Virus record (IMG/VR): IMGVR_UViG_2974628344_000001
Location: 60,329 to 124,328 of that record
From: Streptomyces virus Wollford
Lineage: Duplodnaviria; Heunggongvirae; Uroviricota; Caudoviricetes
Length of the DNA: 64,000 bases
Direction: 5' to 3' (one strand)
This document shows positions 14,950 through 38,555 of this stretch, in pieces (position 1 is the first letter of the stretch; each line of letters opens with the position of its first letter). The notes beneath the pieces were generated by a model. It was not told where the DNA came from. It saw nothing but the letters and a program-made list of their open reading frames with translations, and ran no database searches. The position numbers and the translations under genes are program-made.

Positions 14950-15015
14950 ATTTGGGTCGAATGGGATACGGTTATCACTCAATGGATAATAGGTTCGATT
15001 CCTATCGCTGGGTTC
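14950..15015 (+). tRNA. tRNA-like element (T-arm ataggTTCGATTcctat), 5' half not resolved
   Basis: T-loop at 14993-15003; no matching acceptor found by eye. Confidence 0.25.
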
Positions 15016-26947: not shown

Positions 26948-27019
26948 AGCCCCCATCGTCTAGTGGCTAGGATCTGAGACTTTCAATCTCAAGGGGAGGG
27001 TTCAATTCCCTCTGGGGGT
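26948..27019 (+). tRNA. tRNA-Glu (UUC)
   Basis: acceptor gccccca/tgggggt, stem tgaga/tctca, loop cuUUCaa, T-arm gagggTTCAATTccctc. Confidence 0.8.
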
Positions 27020-27088
27020 ACGTGGGCCGTGACGCAACAAACTCTTTAAGAGAAAATCCTATGGCGTACGCATAGGAACACGGCTTAT

Positions 27089-27161
27089 GCGGGTGTCGTC
27101 TAGCGGCAAAGGCTCCTGCCTTACAAGCAGGTAATCGGAGGTTCGAGTCCTCTCACCCGTA
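27089..27161 (+). tRNA. tRNA-Val (UAC)
   Basis: acceptor gcgggtg/cacccgt, stem cctgc/gcagg, loop cuUACaa, T-arm ggaggTTCGAGTcctct. Confidence 0.8.
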
Positions 27162-27162
27162 C

Positions 27163-27327
27163 GTGAGATATAAAAAGGGAACACGAATTCAATTCGTTGA
27201 AGGTGGCCTAAGAGGTAAAAAGGGCAGGGTTGTTCGATGGGATAGCCCCGGTGTTCATAGAGTTGTTTTAGATGAACTTCCAGATAAGGAATTCATCGCT
27301 CAAACTCACAGATTCATGAAGATTTAG
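27163..27327 (+). CDS. KOW-like small protein (GTG start)
   Basis: 54 aa not in track; GTRIQFVEGGLRGKKGRVVRWD motif. Confidence 0.35.
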   Translation: MRYKKGTRIQFVEGGLRGKKGRVVRWDSPGVHRVVLDELPDKEFIAQTHRFMKI

Positions 27328-27419
27328 TAATAAACGCAATAAACAAAGTTCCTGTTCAAGAGTAAACTTCGTAGGAGCCTGGCAAAAGCCATAAGGTGAC
27401 CGCAAGAGGTTTATTCTTT

Positions 27420-27497
27420 GGGTCTGACAGGTGTGACGTTACTGAAAGCCGACAATGGACCGGTAACGGATAGTGGGTTCGACTCCCACCAGATCCA
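27420..27497 (+). tRNA. tRNA-like element, 78 nt, anticodon arm ambiguous
   Basis: acceptor gggtctg/cagatcc, T-arm gtgggTTCGACTcccac; interior does not fold into a clean D/anticodon pair by eye. Confidence 0.35.
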
Positions 27498-27606
27498 CGC
27501 TGGAGAATTGAAAGTCTTGAAAAGTTGGTCACTCAGTAGAGATTGTTTCACATGCAGGTCTAACCAGCCTCCATGCCGGGCTCAAATCCGGATTCTTCGT
27601 TAACTT

Positions 27607-27681
27607 GCTCCCATAGCCCAACTGGCAGGAGGCACAAGGCTTAGACCCTTGGTAGTGTCGGTTCGAATCCGACTGGGAGTA
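27607..27681 (+). tRNA. tRNA-Leu (UAG), short variable arm
   Basis: acceptor gctccca/tgggagt, stem caagg/ccttg, loop cuUAGac, T-arm gtcggTTCGAATccgac. Confidence 0.6.
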
Positions 27682-27686
27682 CGCAA

Positions 27687-27761
27687 GCCCGCGTAGGCAA
27701 ATTTGGCAAAGCCGTCGGATTTAGGCTCCGGAATTTGCGAGTTCGAGTCTCGCCGTGGGTA
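27687..27761 (+). tRNA. tRNA with UAG anticodon (second copy, G37)
   Basis: acceptor gcccgcg/cgtgggt, stem tcgga/tccgg, loop uuUAGgc, T-arm gcgagTTCGAGTctcgc. Confidence 0.5.
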
Positions 27762-27762
27762 C

Positions 27763-27812
27763 TTTGAGAATACTCGCGATATTCTCAAATGCATATCAGG
27801 TCGCTCCTGATA
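27763..27812 (+). promoter_or_regulatory. two tandem perfect hairpins between tRNAs
   Basis: tttgagaata ctcgcg atattctcaaa then atatcagg tcgctc ctgatat. Confidence 0.4.
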
Positions 27813-27814
27813 TG

Positions 27815-27941
27815 AGGAATGTAGTTTAATGGCAAAACCGCGAAATGCAATGTCGAACGAGAAGTGCTGCTGAGCTAAAGGCGGGTCTTCTACTAGTAGA
27901 TAACAGAGTAGCAGTTGTGGGTTCGAATCCCGCCATTCCGC
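27815..27941 (+). tRNA. tRNA-like with about 55-nt insertion between D arm and T arm (interrupted or pseudo tRNA)
   Basis: 5' part aggaatg-ta-gttt-aatggca-aaac matches tRNA-Gly 12298 D-arm; 3' part gtgggTTCGAATcccgc-cattccg; 75 nt intervening. Confidence 0.3.
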
Positions 27942-28085
27942 TAGCCTGCACTAAATAGTCGGGTATAAGTCGGCAAAGGAGTGTACAATCCTGACCCGCT
28001 TCCCACAAAGTTCCTTGCAAGGTCTATTTAGTTATAGGGTGAGAGCGTCTTGGCAGGTTCCGGCTCATAACAGGAACCTCCACAA

Positions 28086-28157
28086 GGTCCTTTGGCAGAG
28101 ATGGTAATGCACTCGGTTGAAGCCCGAGATATTGCGGTTCGATTCCGCAGGGGACCA
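28086..28157 (+). tRNA. tRNA-Phe (GAA)
   Basis: acceptor ggtcctt/ggggacc, stem ctcgg/ccgag, loop uuGAAgc, T-arm tgcggTTCGATTccgca. Confidence 0.8.
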
Positions 28158-28205
28158 CTAGGGTTGAAGTTTGACAGATTATTTCAACCCATGTATACTT
28201 ACCAT

Positions 28206-28649
28206 ATGAAGACATGTACTGTATGTGGTAAGGAGAAGGACTCAGATTCATTCGCGTTTAGAAATAAAGCGAAGGGAATCCGACGAGCACAATGTAAATC
28301 TTGCATGAGTGATTACGACAAGTCTAAATATCAGACTCCTGAACGAAAGCAAGCAATCAAGGAGAATGATGCAAGAAGACGACAAGAACTGATTGACAGA
28401 GTTTGGGCAATTAAAAACAACGCCTCATGTGCAGACTGTGGCTATTCAAATCCAATAGCTCTAGAGTTTGACCATCTTCCTCAATTTCAGAAGAGTTACA
28501 ATGTCTCTGAGATGGTTGACAGAAGGTTCGCCTGGAGTAAGATTGAAGAAGAGATAGCCAAGTGCGAGATAGTCTGTGCAAACTGTCATAAGATTCGAAC
28601 TCATACAAGAGACCCACGAAGGGTCAGAAATATTACAGTAGCTTGTTGA
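28206..28649 (+). CDS. HNH homing-type endonuclease
   Basis: MKTCTVCG... zinc ribbon N-term, C-terminal DHLPQFQK...CANCH HNH core; paralogue of 36056..36514; track ORF start 28092 overlaps tRNA-Phe and is rejected. Confidence 0.75.
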   Translation: MKTCTVCGKEKDSDSFAFRNKAKGIRRAQCKSCMSDYDKSKYQTPERKQAIKENDARRRQELIDRVWAIKNNASCADCGYSNPIALEFDHLPQFQKSYNVSEMVDRRFAWSKIEEEIAKCEIVCANCHKIRTHTRDPRRVRNITVAC

Positions 28650-28674
28650 CTCAGTTCGATTCTGAGGGGGACCA
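28650..28674 (+). other. orphan tRNA 3' fragment (T-arm + acceptor 3' strand) duplicating end of tRNA-Phe
   Basis: ctcagTTCGATTctgag ggggacc a versus tgcggTTCGATTccgca ggggacc a at 28135-28157; begins 1 nt after HNH stop. Confidence 0.55.
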
Positions 28675-28747
28675 CAATGAGTAGGTAAGGAACGGTTCGA
28701 TTCCGTGTTTCCCGGGTTGGTGTATGGCGCATAGACCTGCTCAGTAT

Positions 28748-28818
28748 TCCGCAGTGGTGAAATGGTATCACATGGCCTTGCCAAGGCTAAAGCGCGAGTT
28801 CGATTCTCGTCTGCGGGA
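28748..28818 (+). tRNA. tRNA-Gly (GCC)
   Basis: acceptor tccgcag/ctgcggg, D gtga/tcac, stem tggcc/ggcta, loop uuGCCaa, T-arm gcgagTTCGATTctcgt. Confidence 0.7.
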
Positions 28819-28821
28819 CTG

Positions 28822-28920
28822 GTGAATGTAAATGGAGGTAGTATGGTTCGATTCCATACGGCCGGTGGCCCGGTATAAAAAGTTAGCTACTGCCCAAGGT
28901 TCGATTCCTTGACATTCACT
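28822..28920 (+). other. aberrant 99-nt tRNA-like element with two T-arm hairpins
   Basis: 8-bp closing stem gtgaatgt/acattcac enclosing tatggTTCGATTccata, ggccggtggcccgg hairpin and caaggTTCGATTccttg. Confidence 0.3.
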
Positions 28921-28924
28921 TAAT

Positions 28925-28997
28925 GCCTCTGTAGAGTAATGGATAACTCAACAGCCTTCTAAGCTGAAAATTGCAGGTTCGAATCCTGTCAGGGGTA
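28925..28997 (+). tRNA. tRNA-Arg (UCU)
   Basis: acceptor gcctctg/caggggt, loop cuUCUaa, T-arm gcaggTTCGAATcctgt. Confidence 0.75.
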
Positions 28998-29017
28998 CTT
29001 TCTACAATGGAGACACC

Positions 29018-29203
29018 ATGCCTGTAACGATGACTGAGCTATTTCTGGCCGGTGTGATTGAGCACCACGGAATAGAACCAAATGGCGAAGCTCTAATTAA
29101 GATCAATTGGGATGTTCTTCGTGAGTATAACTATGATCTCTATGTACATATGCGGGCGGCGGAGATTGACGCCGACCTAGATGGTGATACAATGGAGTCA
29201 TGA
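29018..29203 (+). CDS. hypothetical protein
   Basis: 61-aa ORF. Confidence 0.35.
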   Translation: MPVTMTELFLAGVIEHHGIEPNGEALIKINWDVLREYNYDLYVHMRAAEIDADLDGDTMES

Positions 29204-29353
29204 ATACGTACGAAGTAACTGTATCCCTATTGGTTACAGTGGAAGCACCTGATGAGTCAGACGCAAGAGAAGCCGTTCAAGATGCATTTGACGTTGGCGA
29301 GTTCTGCGGTCTTGATGTAAAGGATGTAGAGGTTGAGATCATTGAATCTTGAT
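29201..29353 (+). CDS. hypothetical acidic small protein
   Basis: 50-aa ORF not in track, start overlaps upstream stop. Confidence 0.3.
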
Positions 29354-29521
29354 TTCAACACTCTGGCAAAGATGACTGACTCAGATGATATTGAGTTCAT
29401 GATGAAATGCACATTCTGTACAGAACCAGCAACTACAGAGTTGACAGTAAAGGTTGGACCTGATATGGTAGTACCAATGCCGAGCTGCGAAAGCTGTAGG
29501 GCAGATGGCTGAAAGGCCAAT

Positions 29522-29593
29522 GGGCGATTAGTGTTAATGGTAGCACGAGTGACTTGCAATCACTTAGAGCGGGTTCGAACCCCGCATTGTCCA
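29522..29593 (+). tRNA. tRNA-Ala (UGC)
   Basis: acceptor gggcgat/attgtcc (G3:U70), stem agtga/tcact, loop cuUGCaa, T-arm gcgggTTCGAACcccgc. Confidence 0.8.
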
Positions 29594-29687
29594 CGCGATG
29601 AGTTAGGCCAGTACAGCTGCAATTTGAACAATTGCGGTGTCTAACGGTAGAAAACCTGGCGAACTTCCTGCGCAGGAGGTGAAGTAA

Positions 29688-29762
29688 ATGCGAGAAGGTA
29701 GTGTACTTTGGACGATTGTTGCGATTCTCGCAATCGTCGCCCTACTAATTTTCATTCTTTAA
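29688..29762 (+). CDS. 24-aa hydrophobic micro-peptide (speculative)
   Basis: MREGSVLWTIVAILAIVALLIFIL between two tRNAs, GGT-rich upstream. Confidence 0.15.
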   Translation: MREGSVLWTIVAILAIVALLIFIL

Positions 29763-29825
29763 GATTTTGGCTGGCCGGTACGAACCCCATCGTATCCTTT
29801 GCCCGAGGGTTAGGGACCAGCGCTT

Positions 29826-29898
29826 GATCCGGTAGCTCAGTCTGGCCGAGCGGAGGGCTCTTAACCCTTGGACGTGAGTTCGAATCTCACTCGGATCA
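29826..29898 (+). tRNA. tRNA-Lys (CUU)
   Basis: acceptor gatccgg/tcggatc, D gctc/gagc, stem gaggg/ccctt, loop cuCUUaa, T-arm gtgagTTCGAATctcac. Confidence 0.8.
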
Positions 29899-29905
29899 CA
29901 TAAAC

Positions 29906-29934
29906 CACCCGGCCCCTTGTGGGCCGGGTTTATT
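29906..29934 (+). terminator. Rho-independent terminator
   Basis: cacccggccc cttgt gggccgggtttatt. Confidence 0.65.
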
Positions 29935-29953
29935 CATATGTTACAATGTCTAT

Positions 29954-30508
29954 ATGACTACACCAAAGAAGTACACACCAAAGCCCGGTGACATTGGGCT
30001 CACCCGGATTGGTGGTCTAACAGGAGTCCTAGTGGGTCTAGGACAATTTATCATTAGAGATGCAAGTCGATACACCCATGTGTTTGTTGTATTGGATGAT
30101 GACACCGTTCTAGAGGCCATGCCAGGCGGAGCGATCATCAGTCCACTTAGCAAGTATGCTGGAACTACCAAGTATGGAAGCCCGGTGGCAGCGTACCTTG
30201 ATATCAAGTTGACAGCAGAGCAGCGAACACGTATCGTAGAAGAAGCTAGACAGCTCGTAGGAACGCCGTACAGCTTCCTTGACTATGTTGCCTTGGCTCT
30301 GGAAAGATTTGGTCTTAGCTGGAAGAGACTTGAGAACTATGTAGCTTCTACTAAGCATATGATCTGTTCTCAGCTAGCTGACGAGGTATACAAGAGAGCT
30401 GGCGTTCATCTGTTTGAAGATGGTAGACTGTCTCAGAAGGTCACTCCTGGTGATCTTACCTACGTTGGAATGGACCAGCGATATGAAGAAGAACTGCCTG
30501 GGCTGTAA
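29954..30508 (+). CDS. hypothetical protein
   Basis: 184-aa ORF. Confidence 0.5.
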   Translation: MTTPKKYTPKPGDIGLTRIGGLTGVLVGLGQFIIRDASRYTHVFVVLDDDTVLEAMPGGAIISPLSKYAGTTKYGSPVAAYLDIKLTAEQRTRIVEEARQLVGTPYSFLDYVALALERFGLSWKRLENYVASTKHMICSQLADEVYKRAGVHLFEDGRLSQKVTPGDLTYVGMDQRYEEELPGL

Positions 30509-35981: not shown

Positions 35982-36022
35982 AAGCGGATTAGTGAAACGG
36001 TATCACGCGAGGCTCATAATCT
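35982..36022 (+). other. 5' half of a CAU-type tRNA (acceptor + D-arm + partial anticodon arm)
   Basis: gcggatt ag tgaa acggta tcac g cgaggCTCATAAtctgc; no T-arm follows, HNH gene starts 34 nt later. Confidence 0.4.
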
Positions 36023-36055
36023 GCTTCATAATATGAGTCAAGATACAATGGCTTT

Positions 36056-36514
36056 ATGAAGACGTGTATCAAGTGTAAGAATTCACTAGAGCTTAGTGCA
36101 TTCAGCAAGAATGCTGCTAAGAAGGATGGTCTCCAGAACACATGCAAGGAATGTCGTAAGGCATACCAGAAGACATGGTATAAGGAGAATTCAACTGTCC
36201 ACAAACAAAGAGTTTACTCATCCAGAAACCTGATTAAGCAGTGGGTTTACGATTATCTAGCAAGTCATCCCTGCGTTGACTGTGGAGAATCAAGAATTCC
36301 ATGCCTAGACTTTGACCATCGAGACCCATCAGAAAAGTCATTCAATATTGGTGGTCTTGGAGCTTCAATCAATGGGCTTGACAGGGTGAAGGCTGAGGTA
36401 CTAAAATGTGACGTACGATGTTCAAACTGCCACAGAGTAAGAACGGCTGAACAGTTTGGATGGTACGCATTCACGATGCAGGATGGTGGAGGTAGTTCCA
36501 TGTCGGGCTCATAA
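36056..36514 (+). CDS. HNH homing-type endonuclease
   Basis: MKTCIKCK... zinc ribbon, C-terminal DFDHRDP...CSNCH HNH; C-terminal 9 residues (GGGSSMSGS) read into tRNA-like sequence. Confidence 0.75.
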   Translation: MKTCIKCKNSLELSAFSKNAAKKDGLQNTCKECRKAYQKTWYKENSTVHKQRVYSSRNLIKQWVYDYLASHPCVDCGESRIPCLDFDHRDPSEKSFNIGGLGASINGLDRVKAEVLKCDVRCSNCHRVRTAEQFGWYAFTMQDGGGSSMSGS

Positions 36515-36545
36515 CCCGAAGACCCCAGTGCGACTCTGGGTCCTG
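36484..36545 (+). other. D-armless tRNA-like element with CAU loop and non-canonical T-loop TGCGACT
   Basis: tcgggCTCATAAcccga ... cccagTGCGACTctggg tcctgcc; overlaps 3' end of HNH ORF. Confidence 0.3.
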
Positions 36546-36723
36546 CCACTATGAAAAAGCAATGCCGAATAGGTAGGAAAATCACCATTGATGGTGTAAC
36601 ATTTCCTAAGAGGTGTCTACTCGCTGTGCATGGAGAAGACGTAGCTCATTATGATGGCGATGAATGGTTCATCACTTTTGAGAAGATTAATCCAGATTCT
36701 GAAAGTTCAGTAGTCGTTTACGA

Positions 36724-36930
36724 GTGATTCCTGTTCGAATCAGGGTCCGCCCCCACTTACTTGGAGACAACATGGCTTGCTTTGAAGTTGATGAAGAACT
36801 GGTTGCCAAGAGGGCAGCCGAGATGCTACGATATTTCAAGAGTCAGGAAGCAAAGAAGAAGATGCTGGAGATAGCACGAGAGCTTCCAGAGGTCGCCAAG
36901 GTAGACTACATTTCACTTATGTCAAAGTGA
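36724..36930 (+). CDS. hypothetical protein
   Basis: 68-aa ORF. Confidence 0.35.
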   Translation: MIPVRIRVRPHLLGDNMACFEVDEELVAKRAAEMLRYFKSQEAKKKMLEIARELPEVAKVDYISLMSK

Positions 36931-37607: not shown

Positions 37608-37679
37608 GCATGTAAGCCAGGGATAAGCTAGGCGGGCCTGTAAAGCCCTACCTCGTTGGTTCGAATCCAACTACATGCA
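37608..37679 (+). tRNA. tRNA-Tyr (GUA)-like, short variable arm
   Basis: acceptor gcatgta/tacatgc, stem gggc/gccc, loop cuGUAaa, T-arm gttggTTCGAATccaac. Confidence 0.5.
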
Positions 37680-37756: not shown

Positions 37757-37828
37757 GGGCATGTAGCTCAGTTGGTAGAGCACTGGTGTGAAGTACCAGG
37801 CGCGAGGGTTCGATTCCCTACTTGCCCA
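37757..37828 (+). tRNA. tRNA-Phe (GAA)-like second copy (G37, one acceptor mismatch)
   Basis: acceptor gggcatg/cttgccc, D gctc/gagc, stem ctggt/accag, loop guGAAgu, T-arm gagggTTCGATTcccta. Confidence 0.5.
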
Positions 37829-37829
37829 C

Positions 37830-38434: not shown

Positions 38435-38509
38435 GGCGCTGTTGTAGAGAGTTTCTGCCGGTAGTCTGCAAAACTACTTGATTAGAGGGTGCGACTCCCT
38501 CCAGTGCTT
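38435..38509 (+). tRNA. tRNA-Cys (GCA)-like with non-canonical T-loop TGCGACT
   Basis: acceptor ggcgctg/cagtgct, stem gtagt/actac, loop cuGCAaa, T-arm gagggTGCGACTccctc (G at position 55). Confidence 0.4.
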
Positions 38510-38555
38510 CGAAGCCTTTAGGAAACCGTTGGGCTGCTGGACAACGGAACCACTT

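Follow-up and report, generated by a model that had tools for sequence, protein, structure and literature searches.

How does the 3' end of a transfer RNA (tRNA) gene come to lie directly behind the stop codon of an endonuclease gene? The question is raised by a locus of the Streptomyces phage Wofford (NC_048722.1; 133 kb; Stanwilliamsviridae, Karimacvirus), whose close relatives are known in the literature as cluster BE. We analyzed a 64,000-nucleotide stretch of its genome, hereafter the window, in which a position equals that of the record minus 60328; by megablast, 27000-30000 match the Wofford record with 100% identity. ARAGORN finds 43 tRNA genes and one transfer-messenger RNA gene in the window, and mid-array stands the gene for an HNH endonuclease, gp143, preceded by tRNA-Phe(GAA) and followed by a copy of a tRNA T-arm and acceptor strand. 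The original prediction, made from the letters of the sequence, had read this as the footprint of a free-standing homing endonuclease that invaded a tRNA array, with an interrupted second tRNA as the alternative. The former reading is borne out by relatives that lack the HNH gene. We consider it highly probable that the locus holds a 517-bp free-standing HNH homing-endonuclease cassette, which lies within tRNA-Phe(GAA) where the variable loop meets the T-stem (between tRNA positions 48 and 49) and rebuilds the tRNA that it interrupts. The parts of the locus are as follows.

28086-28158 (ARAGORN) or 28086-28157 (Rfam, 55.3 bits), + strand: tRNA-Phe(GAA), a chimera
28086..28132, + strand: native 5' two-thirds of tRNA-Phe(GAA), tRNA positions 1-48, within the ARAGORN/Rfam tRNA call
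28133..28158, + strand: replacement T-arm and acceptor 3' strand (tgcgg-ttcgatt-ccgca, ggggacc, discriminator A, C)
28133..28649, + strand: complete inserted cassette, 517 bp, both junctions set against the empty sites of relatives
28161..28190, + strand: ten-pair hairpin gggttgaagt...atttcaaccc, directly past the tRNA 3' end, with the -35 hexamer in its loop
28171..28199, + strand: predicted sigma-70-type promoter TTGACA-17 nt-TATACT, from a promoter scan
28206..28649, + strand: HNH endonuclease open reading frame (ORF), Wofford gp143, 147 amino acids, ATG at 28206 and TGA at 28647-28649, as annotated in NC_048722.1
28650..28675, + strand: displaced native 3' end of tRNA-Phe (the relic), 26 nt, starting at the first base after the HNH stop codon

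Empty and filled sites in the tRNA-Phe gene

The coordinates first proposed for tRNA-Phe(GAA) and for the HNH ORF hold in the ARAGORN, Rfam and ORF calls and in the annotation of NC_048722.1. The sequence also confirms the 25-nt copy of a T-arm and acceptor strand noticed after the stop codon, which matches the upstream tRNA-Phe 3' end at 19 of 25 positions by direct reading. The relic reads ctcag-ttcgatt-ctgag (T-arm), ggggacc (acceptor 3' strand), discriminator A and then C, and the six differences from the upstream tRNA amount to three compensatory changes of T-stem pairs (49-65, 50-64 and 52-62). Duplicated tRNA 3' segments stand at both ends of the cassette (28133-28158 and 28650-28675), and the tRNA is left intact.

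Six HNH-less relatives were compared at this locus: BoomerJR, LukeCage, Battuta, StarPlatinum, Spilled and LilMartin. Each holds one intact tRNA-Phe that reads ...GCCCGAGATAT/CTCAGTTCGATTCTGAGGGGGACCAC across the insertion point (a slash marks the junction), and its 3' end is the very fragment found behind the HNH gene in Wofford. The empty-site form is ...GAGATAT/CTCAGTTCGATTCTGAGGGGGACCAC..., and the filled left junction, set against it, is ...GAGATAT/CTCAGTTCGATT.... The insert opens with TGCGGTTCGATTCCGCAGGGGACCAC, which stands in for tRNA positions 49-73 and the next base. In short form, the carriers have GATAT/TGCGG on the left and TTGA/CTCAG on the right, compared to GATAT/CTCAG at the empty site. 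Wofford is the empty site with 517 bp put between tRNA positions 48 and 49. The original prediction had set the HNH gene beside tRNA-Phe; the two do adjoin, but the cassette lies inside the tRNA gene, whose T-arm and acceptor 3' strand are cassette-borne. The annotated tRNA-Phe is a chimera of a native part (positions 1-48) and a cassette-borne 3' part. The native part comprises the acceptor 5' strand, the D-arm, the anticodon arm and the variable loop ...GAGATAT, and it is the same in relatives with and without the HNH gene, with a one-base exception in BoomerJR.

The relic matches the intact tRNA-Phe 3' end of the HNH-less relatives at 26 of 26 positions, and the native spacer then continues: the spacer of BoomerJR, LukeCage and StarPlatinum (AATGA.TA.G...AACGGTTCGATTCCGTG...) is the one behind the relic in Wofford. 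Because the relic and the sequence that follows it equal the tRNA-Phe 3' end and spacer of these relatives, we identify the 26-nt fragment as the original end of the tRNA-Phe gene, displaced by the insertion; the similarity is not due to chance. A fragment shared with HNH-less phages had been named as a sign that it was not linked to the insertion. The sequence is indeed present in them, although as the working end of tRNA-Phe with no extra fragment, and it is therefore linked to the insertion. The relic is non-functional, and probably serves as the right-hand homology arm for homing.

We then probed 50,697 phage records with a 31-nt probe for the empty junction and a separate probe for the filled left junction. 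The empty junction (GATAT/CTCAG...GGGGACCAC) occurs in 34 records, or about 29 distinct phages after removal of RefSeq/GenBank duplicates, always inside an annotated tRNA-Phe wherever the record has annotation. These phages cover two genera, Karimacvirus and Samistivirus (the latter with LilMartin). The filled left junction, and with it the TGCGG allele, was found in 7 of the 50,697 records, corresponding to six phages (Wofford, Elmer, CeilingFan, KentuckyRacer, TomSawyer and JimJam), and the same six carry an HNH ortholog (tblastn, >=85% protein identity). No TGCGG T-arm without the HNH gene was present among the phage records probed, and the exact replacement arm had no match in IMG/VR or the metagenome collection. 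Since the TGCGG allele occurs only in the six HNH-bearing phages, the replacement T-arm belongs to the cassette. The locus is thus a presence/absence polymorphism at one site, filled in six phages and empty in about 29, and the carrier allele differs from the empty allele by three T-stem pairs at the point of insertion, where a target would be lost.

The chimeric tRNA-Phe looks as good as the native one and fully canonical, with an Rfam tRNA score of 55.3 bits compared to 55.2 for the native allele of BoomerJR. Its minimum-free-energy fold is no cloverleaf; we discounted this, since chimera and native allele score equally with the covariance model. The second tRNA-Phe of Wofford (37757-37829) was considered as a source of the replacement arm and rejected, its arm being gaggg/ccct(a).

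The HNH gene, its family and its spread

The assignment of gp143 to the HNH, or beta-beta-alpha-Me (His-Me finger), nucleases has adequate evidence, which does not come from Pfam, and its activity is predicted. At its N-terminus gp143 has a zinc ribbon (CxxC...CxxC), followed by a long helical hairpin and, at the C-terminus, a nuclease core of the form CxxC...DH...N...CxxCH. In 78 homologs C75, D89, H90, C124 and H128 never vary, and conservation reaches at least 90% at C78, N126 and C127; the same pattern (D/H-H ... N ... H framed by two CxxC pairs) recurs in seven phage family members. PHROG 2255 ("HNH endonuclease") matches gp143 with E = 3e-33, while Pfam PF01844 gives E = 1.4, short of the PF01844 cut-off, and an NCBIfam scan gave no match. 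A PDB sequence search with the single protein returned nothing, and the best matches of a seven-sequence profile to the PDB, PacI and Hpy99I, reached only E ~0.5. The AlphaFold2 model has a predicted local distance difference test score (pLDDT) of 95.8, and it has the beta-beta-alpha-metal fold.

The cassette appears to carry its own expression signals. Between the tRNA and the ORF, RNA folding gives the ten-pair hairpin a free energy of -13 kcal/mol (z = -2.5). The predicted promoter (TTGACA at 28171-76, 17 nt, TATACT at 28194-99) agrees with the consensus at 11 of 12 positions and is the best match of the region in the scan; its TTGACA sits in the hairpin loop and the rest in the 3' flank of the hairpin. 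Because only 6 nt separate the -10 hexamer from the ATG, and no Shine-Dalgarno sequence precedes that ATG, the HNH messenger RNA is probably leaderless. Such leaderless messenger RNAs are common in actinobacteria. The geometry in Tribute is alike (TTGCAA-17-TATAAT-6-ATG), and equivalent promoters are found at the metagenomic loci L021 and L022.

A protein search gave 497 homologs of gp143, almost none with a Pfam domain on record. The four closest metagenomic homologs with usable contigs (57-69% identity) gave five loci, and in all five the HNH gene lies directly downstream of tRNA-Phe(GAA), with the same hairpin (seen in L021, L022, L023 and L024) and promoter in between. At L021, L022 and L024/L025 the order is tRNA-Phe, HNH, tRNA-Gly, an arrangement that we call type A. 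There the ORF stops inside the 5' end of tRNA-Gly, and no relic is present. Because of this overlap we considered whether the last codons of the Wofford ORF (..ACAGTAGCTTGTTGA) might be a tRNA-Gly 5' remnant; this was rejected, as the C-terminal VRNI(T/V)V is native to the family (L024, Tribute). The T-arm at L021 and L022 is TTCGG..CCGAA, one compensatory pair away from the Wofford cassette arm, and in the ancestral state the cassette arm is likely to have been the plain T-arm of the donor's tRNA-Phe.

The remaining locus, L023, differs in its order: tRNA-His, then a novel tRNA-Phe, then the HNH gene. A T-arm and acceptor relic, (g)TGAGTTCGATTCTCAACTTGTCCAC, overlaps the HNH stop codon, and it resembles the 3' end of the other tRNA-Phe of this phage group, which adjoins tRNA-His (in Wofford the gene at 37757-37829, ending ..gagggttcgattccctacttgcccac). 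L023 shows the stranding of a tRNA-Phe 3' end a second time, independently. That two different tRNA-Phe genes were each entered at the 5' border of the T-stem, in independent events, suggests this border as the site where the enzyme cuts. Members at a greater distance (44-52% identity; phage homologs 35-47%) adjoin other tRNAs. P0008 lies before tRNA-Phe, P0011 and Tribute before tRNA-Gly, P0017 between tRNA-Gln and tRNA-Thr, Mx1 between tRNA-Gln and tRNA-Lys, and Myrna directly behind tRNA-Asn; two of the sampled distant members (Cursive and P0010) have no adjoining tRNA.

Within the phages, the cassette junctions are identical in all six carriers and the cassette is 517-518 bp long, which points to a single origin. 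What follows the relic varies, and each context is also found in phages that lack the cassette:

Wofford: spacer A behind the relic; same context without the cassette in BoomerJR, LukeCage and StarPlatinum
JimJam: spacer B behind the relic; same context without the cassette in Battuta
KentuckyRacer and CeilingFan: spacer C behind the relic; same context without the cassette in LilMartin
TomSawyer and Elmer: a second, unrelated HNH gene behind the relic; same context without the cassette in Spilled

The cassette is spreading horizontally, independent of its flanks. The 300 nt upstream are 100% identical among JimJam, KentuckyRacer, CeilingFan and TomSawyer, which have the cassette, and Spilled, which does not; the identity to the cassette-free Battuta is 99.3%. 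Despite identical upstream flanks, the cassettes of TomSawyer and JimJam share only 86.5% identity, while those of Wofford and JimJam are 96.9% identical between upstream flanks of ~73-75%. The ratio of non-synonymous to synonymous substitution rates (dN/dS) of the HNH ORF is 0.03-0.04, with dS up to 0.94-1.1. The cassette looks mobile and active, and by these values the ORF is under strong purifying selection. Between Wofford and TomSawyer the replacement arm has changed at 0 of 26 positions, the stretch of hairpin and promoter at 3 of 47 (both hexamers unchanged) and the ORF at 60 of 444. The relic, too, shows 0 of 26 changes between these phages where we calculated ~14 at the synonymous rate, and it therefore does not drift along with the cassette. 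It is unchanged in five of the six cassette-bearing phages, with one change in Elmer. The simplest reading is that the relic comes from the recipient at each homing event, having formerly been the selected end of a working tRNA.

Alternative explanations and a proposed route

The alternative in the original prediction, that the HNH gene interrupts a separate second tRNA whose 3' half survives next to an untouched tRNA-Phe, could draw on the tandem duplicates of the array (two tRNA-Leu(tag) at 27607-27762, two tRNA-Pro) and on the six mismatches in 25 positions between the fragment and the upstream tRNA end. It is scarcely credible in view of the relatives: none has two tRNA-Phe genes at the site, the fragment is the end of their single native tRNA-Phe and runs into the native spacer, and no phage without the HNH gene has the T-arm type of the upstream tRNA. 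A matching 5' half, which had been expected within 28590-28650, was not detected there by ARAGORN, Rfam or RNA folding, and neither ARAGORN nor Rfam calls a complete tRNA that includes the relic, as would be the case had one been missed by hand folding; folding of 28600-28680 gives the T hairpin alone (z = 0). A cassette that is ancestral, deleted from the HNH-less phages between its T-arm repeats, with the fragment an old duplicate, is very improbable. Direct repeats with 19/25 identity do flank the HNH gene and could support a deletion, and homing endonuclease genes are often lost. Recombination within the shared TTCGATT or GGGGACCAC would, however, leave a mismatched hybrid stem or a TGCGG arm, whereas all 34 HNH-less records have pure CTCAG..CTGAG and TGCGG never occurs without the HNH gene. 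Since no such product is seen, we read the polarity as insertion. The CTCAG allele, moreover, spans two genera (including LilMartin in Samistivirus), and the finding that identical flanks can hold no cassette or any of several divergent ones is more easily explained by gain than by loss.

Compatible with an origin by insertion is the proposal that the 26-nt element has been kept for a function of its own, as a T-arm-like signal for processing or stability of the HNH transcript. The ~13 T-arm-like hairpins that stand apart from the tRNAs of the window, almost all of them + strand, would accord with it, as would a relic that has not drifted although the dS of the cassette ORF is ~0.94. That conservation is equally explained by a recipient origin at each homing event, the relic having exactly the sequence of the selected native tRNA. 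Lacking an acceptor 5' strand, the relic is also unable to fold into a tRNA-like substrate, and the type A homologs at L021, L022 and L024 have no relic. We regard a separate function as unlikely. A group I intron with an HNH ORF was also rejected, considering the insertion point between positions 48 and 49, the complete tRNA upstream and the lack of any Rfam intron family in 27300-29100, where no self-splicing intron was found. The chimeric tRNA is contiguous and the HNH ORF has its own predicted promoter, which places the cassette inside neither an intron nor an intein.

We therefore return to a cassette that entered tRNA-Phe and rebuilt it, for which the following route can be proposed. As seen in the metagenomic homologs, the HNH lineage normally sits just 3' of a tRNA-Phe with a T(T/G)CGG T-stem. 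The enzyme would cut tRNA-Phe genes with a CTCAG T-stem at or near the 48/49 border, and repair of the break would have copied T-arm, promoter and HNH gene from a type A donor, one aberrant event joining the copied DNA to the right-hand break end and so creating the duplication. The cassette would since have spread by homing into CTCAG alleles, with the 5' part of the tRNA as left homology arm and the relic, plus whatever follows it, as right arm. The three compensatory T-stem changes would keep the tRNA fold and destroy the target, rendering carriers immune.

Several points weigh against this account. That gp143 cuts DNA, that it cuts CTCAG alleles, that it does so near the 48/49 border and that it spares TGCGG are all inferred. 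With only 26 bp, the right-hand arm would offer little homology. A donor that has the exact TGCGG arm and no relic was not found, the nearest arms to that of the cassette being the metagenomic TTCGG arms. The varied downstream contexts could stem from separate exchanges, an example being homing of the second HNH gene seen in Elmer, TomSawyer and Spilled, and the phages are related, so that the association of six with 29 does not reflect independent events.

The surrounding array and known systems

That second HNH gene encodes an unrelated protein of 167 amino acids (Pfam HNH, E ~1e-3) and is found in Elmer (L002 2150-2770), TomSawyer (L008) and Spilled (L012). It replaces the entire spacer between tRNA-Phe (or the relic) and tRNA-Gly, starting right behind GGGGAC(C/T)AC, and its stop codon lies in the D-loop of tRNA-Gly, a tRNA that the Elmer annotation omits. 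The tRNA-Gly alleles of the relatives are mosaics in which the D-arm comes in two types and the anticodon stem in three or more variants, a pattern reminiscent of conversion tracts. In Wofford the spacer between relic and tRNA-Gly (28676-28747) has a T-arm hairpin closed by a long stem, which covaries among relatives: GAGTAGGT pairs with ACCTGCTC in Wofford, GAATAAGCC with GGCTTATTC in LukeCage and GAGTAGGC with GCTTGCTC in BoomerJR. The covariation suggests a small structured RNA, for which this interval gave no Rfam family.

A comparable arrangement was observed at a tRNA-Met gene. The second tRNA-Met is intact in Elmer (L015 484-555). In Wofford its 5' half (35983-36022) is separated from its 3' part (36727-36755) by an insert of ~704 bp with the HNH gene gp132 (36056-36514, also PHROG 2255). 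A complete substitute tRNA-Met (36477-36549), which overlaps the end of that ORF, and the small ORF gp131 also lie in the insert; this HNH gene and the tRNA-Met 5' half recur in Riptide and Anedea. Window positions 35983-36755 thus appear to hold a second HNH cassette that compensates for the tRNA it breaks.

The T-loop motif GGTTCRANTCC has 61 matches in the window compared to 4.5 expected. About 13 isolated T-arm-like hairpins (stems of 4-5 bp round the motif) lie outside the called tRNAs, several of them clearly intergenic:

14824, 14993, 15698, 20894, 27477, 28695, 28846, 28899, 34179, 42635, 42774, 43555 and 54886, nearly all + strand: isolated T-arm-like hairpins

Those at 14993 and 20894 share a GGGTCGAATG...GGTTATC context. 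A relic origin for all orphan T-arm hairpins was considered and rejected, most of them failing to match the preceding tRNA 3' end; only 28654 and 36733 are explained in this way.

Further tRNA-like sequences were noted. An unannotated 127-nt gene at 27815-27941, missed by ARAGORN and by the GenBank record, reaches 34.2 bits with the Rfam tRNA model, for which the gathering score is 29; its acceptor, D and T arms are good, 71 nt take the place of the anticodon arm, and it could be a tRNA with an intron-like insert, a disrupted tRNA or a tRNA-like RNA. In BoomerJR (L003 1500-1660) the place of the canonical Wofford tRNA-Arg(tct) is taken by an odd unannotated tRNA-like sequence, which by eye shares the anticodon loop and T-arm and has a rearranged 5' region. 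GenBank lists a second tRNA-Tyr(gta) at 37608-37679 (record 97936-98007) that ARAGORN does not call, and the tRNA at 38435-38510 is Cys(gct) in GenBank compared to Cys(gca) by ARAGORN.

Free-standing, intronless homing is exemplified by T4 SegB, SegF and SegG and by MobE. Of these, the nearest experimental precedent is SegB, a GIY-YIG homing endonuclease whose free-standing gene lies in the tRNA cluster of phage T4 (PMC2330249; PMC13096335). Its recognition site spans 27 bp and has at its center GGTTCRANTCC, the motif of the T-loop in tRNA genes, and the enzyme drives preferential inheritance of the surrounding T4 tRNA region (PMC2330249). Homologs of SegB are statistically linked to tRNA genes, and widely so (PMC13096335). 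Both are free-standing endonuclease genes among phage tRNA genes without a counterpart in close relatives; cleavage is demonstrated for SegB and predicted for gp143. gp143 is an HNH protein, however, and SegB belongs to the GIY-YIG superfamily; segB lies between genes, whereas the Wofford cassette lies inside a tRNA gene and restores it, and the excerpted text of PMC2330249 does not mention that SegB carries a tRNA part or displaces a tRNA end.

The outcome in Wofford also recalls the integrase-driven prophages and genomic islands that occupy tRNA genes, with attachment sites attL and attR, a restored 3' end and tRNA fragments left behind (PMC9897764). As in those elements, a substitute 3' segment is carried in, and one complete tRNA and one partial copy stand at opposite ends. 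In contrast, the sole ORF in 517 bp is the 147-amino-acid HNH protein, with no tyrosine or serine recombinase; the integrase elements are of kilobase scale, whereas this cassette is 517 bp long and resides in a lytic phage genome; and in place of an identical att core the Wofford repeats differ at 6 of 25 positions through compensatory changes. The cassette has presumably spread by double-strand-break repair, and integrase elements spread by site-specific recombination. It resembles an integrase-type integrative element in outcome only and is not a member of that class.

Intronless endonuclease insertions may split a gene and yet keep its function, as with mobE in nrdA of Aeromonas phage Aeh1. 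In such "fractured genes" an intronless endonuclease gene lies in an essential gene whose function is retained (PMC2677866). The Wofford cassette is likewise an intronless endonuclease gene inside an essential gene that keeps its function. In fractured genes two expressed pieces reassemble as proteins; a tRNA cannot reassemble, and because of this its function is kept by a duplicated and replaced 3' segment. In the tRNA arrays of phages and mycobacteria no protein-coding genes are as widespread as HNH genes, to which a part in diversifying the tRNA repertoire has been ascribed (PMC5966550, PMC6409571). Members of the gp143 family abut tRNAs in Myrna, Mx1 and Tribute, like these array HNH genes. 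What has been reported for actinophage and T5-like arrays, including cluster M mycobacteriophages, is HNH adjacency (Pope et al. 2014, as cited in PMC5966550 and PMC6409571), whereas Wofford shows repair of the interrupted tRNA. Our full-text literature searches turned up no account of a homing endonuclease cassette that provides a portion of the tRNA into which it is inserted, although a mention in Pope et al. 2014 is possible. The locus joins two known outcomes, an HNH gene in a tRNA array and a restored tRNA 3' end, without an integrase.

A further-reaching possibility, which we put forward tentatively and consider rather doubtful, is that the HNH lineage is a tRNA-Phe-specific homing endonuclease with a T-stem "immunity allele", an integrase-free self-repairing element, and that such invasions, together with those of sister HNH cassettes, are the main engine of tRNA-array evolution in these phages. 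If this were true, the tRNA-Met case (35983-36755) and the HNH gene before tRNA-Gly in Elmer, TomSawyer and Spilled would be sister cases, and the traces to be expected would be chimeric tRNAs whose arms had been exchanged, halves of tRNAs left stranded and perhaps a share of the orphan T-arm hairpins.

Free-standing homing endonucleases are thought to settle between genes, since insertion into a gene tends to be fatal unless an intron or intein accompanies it. The Wofford locus presents a third route for a structural RNA gene, which is to carry the spare part, the selfish gene mending what it breaks. It also provides a ready test system: an enzyme of 147 amino acids, a natural, presumably sensitive CTCAG allele (about 29 phages) and a presumably immune TGCGG allele (six phages) that differ in the T-stem by three compensatory pairs only, and flanks that are isogenic whether or not the cassette is present. 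Phages of the SEA-PHAGES collection make target recognition, immunity and homing directly testable. Phage tRNA genes can be chimeras of native and cassette-borne arms, which matters for how tRNA variation is read and how tRNA fragments are annotated, and this may bear on the diversification of phage tRNAs under host tRNA-targeting defenses.

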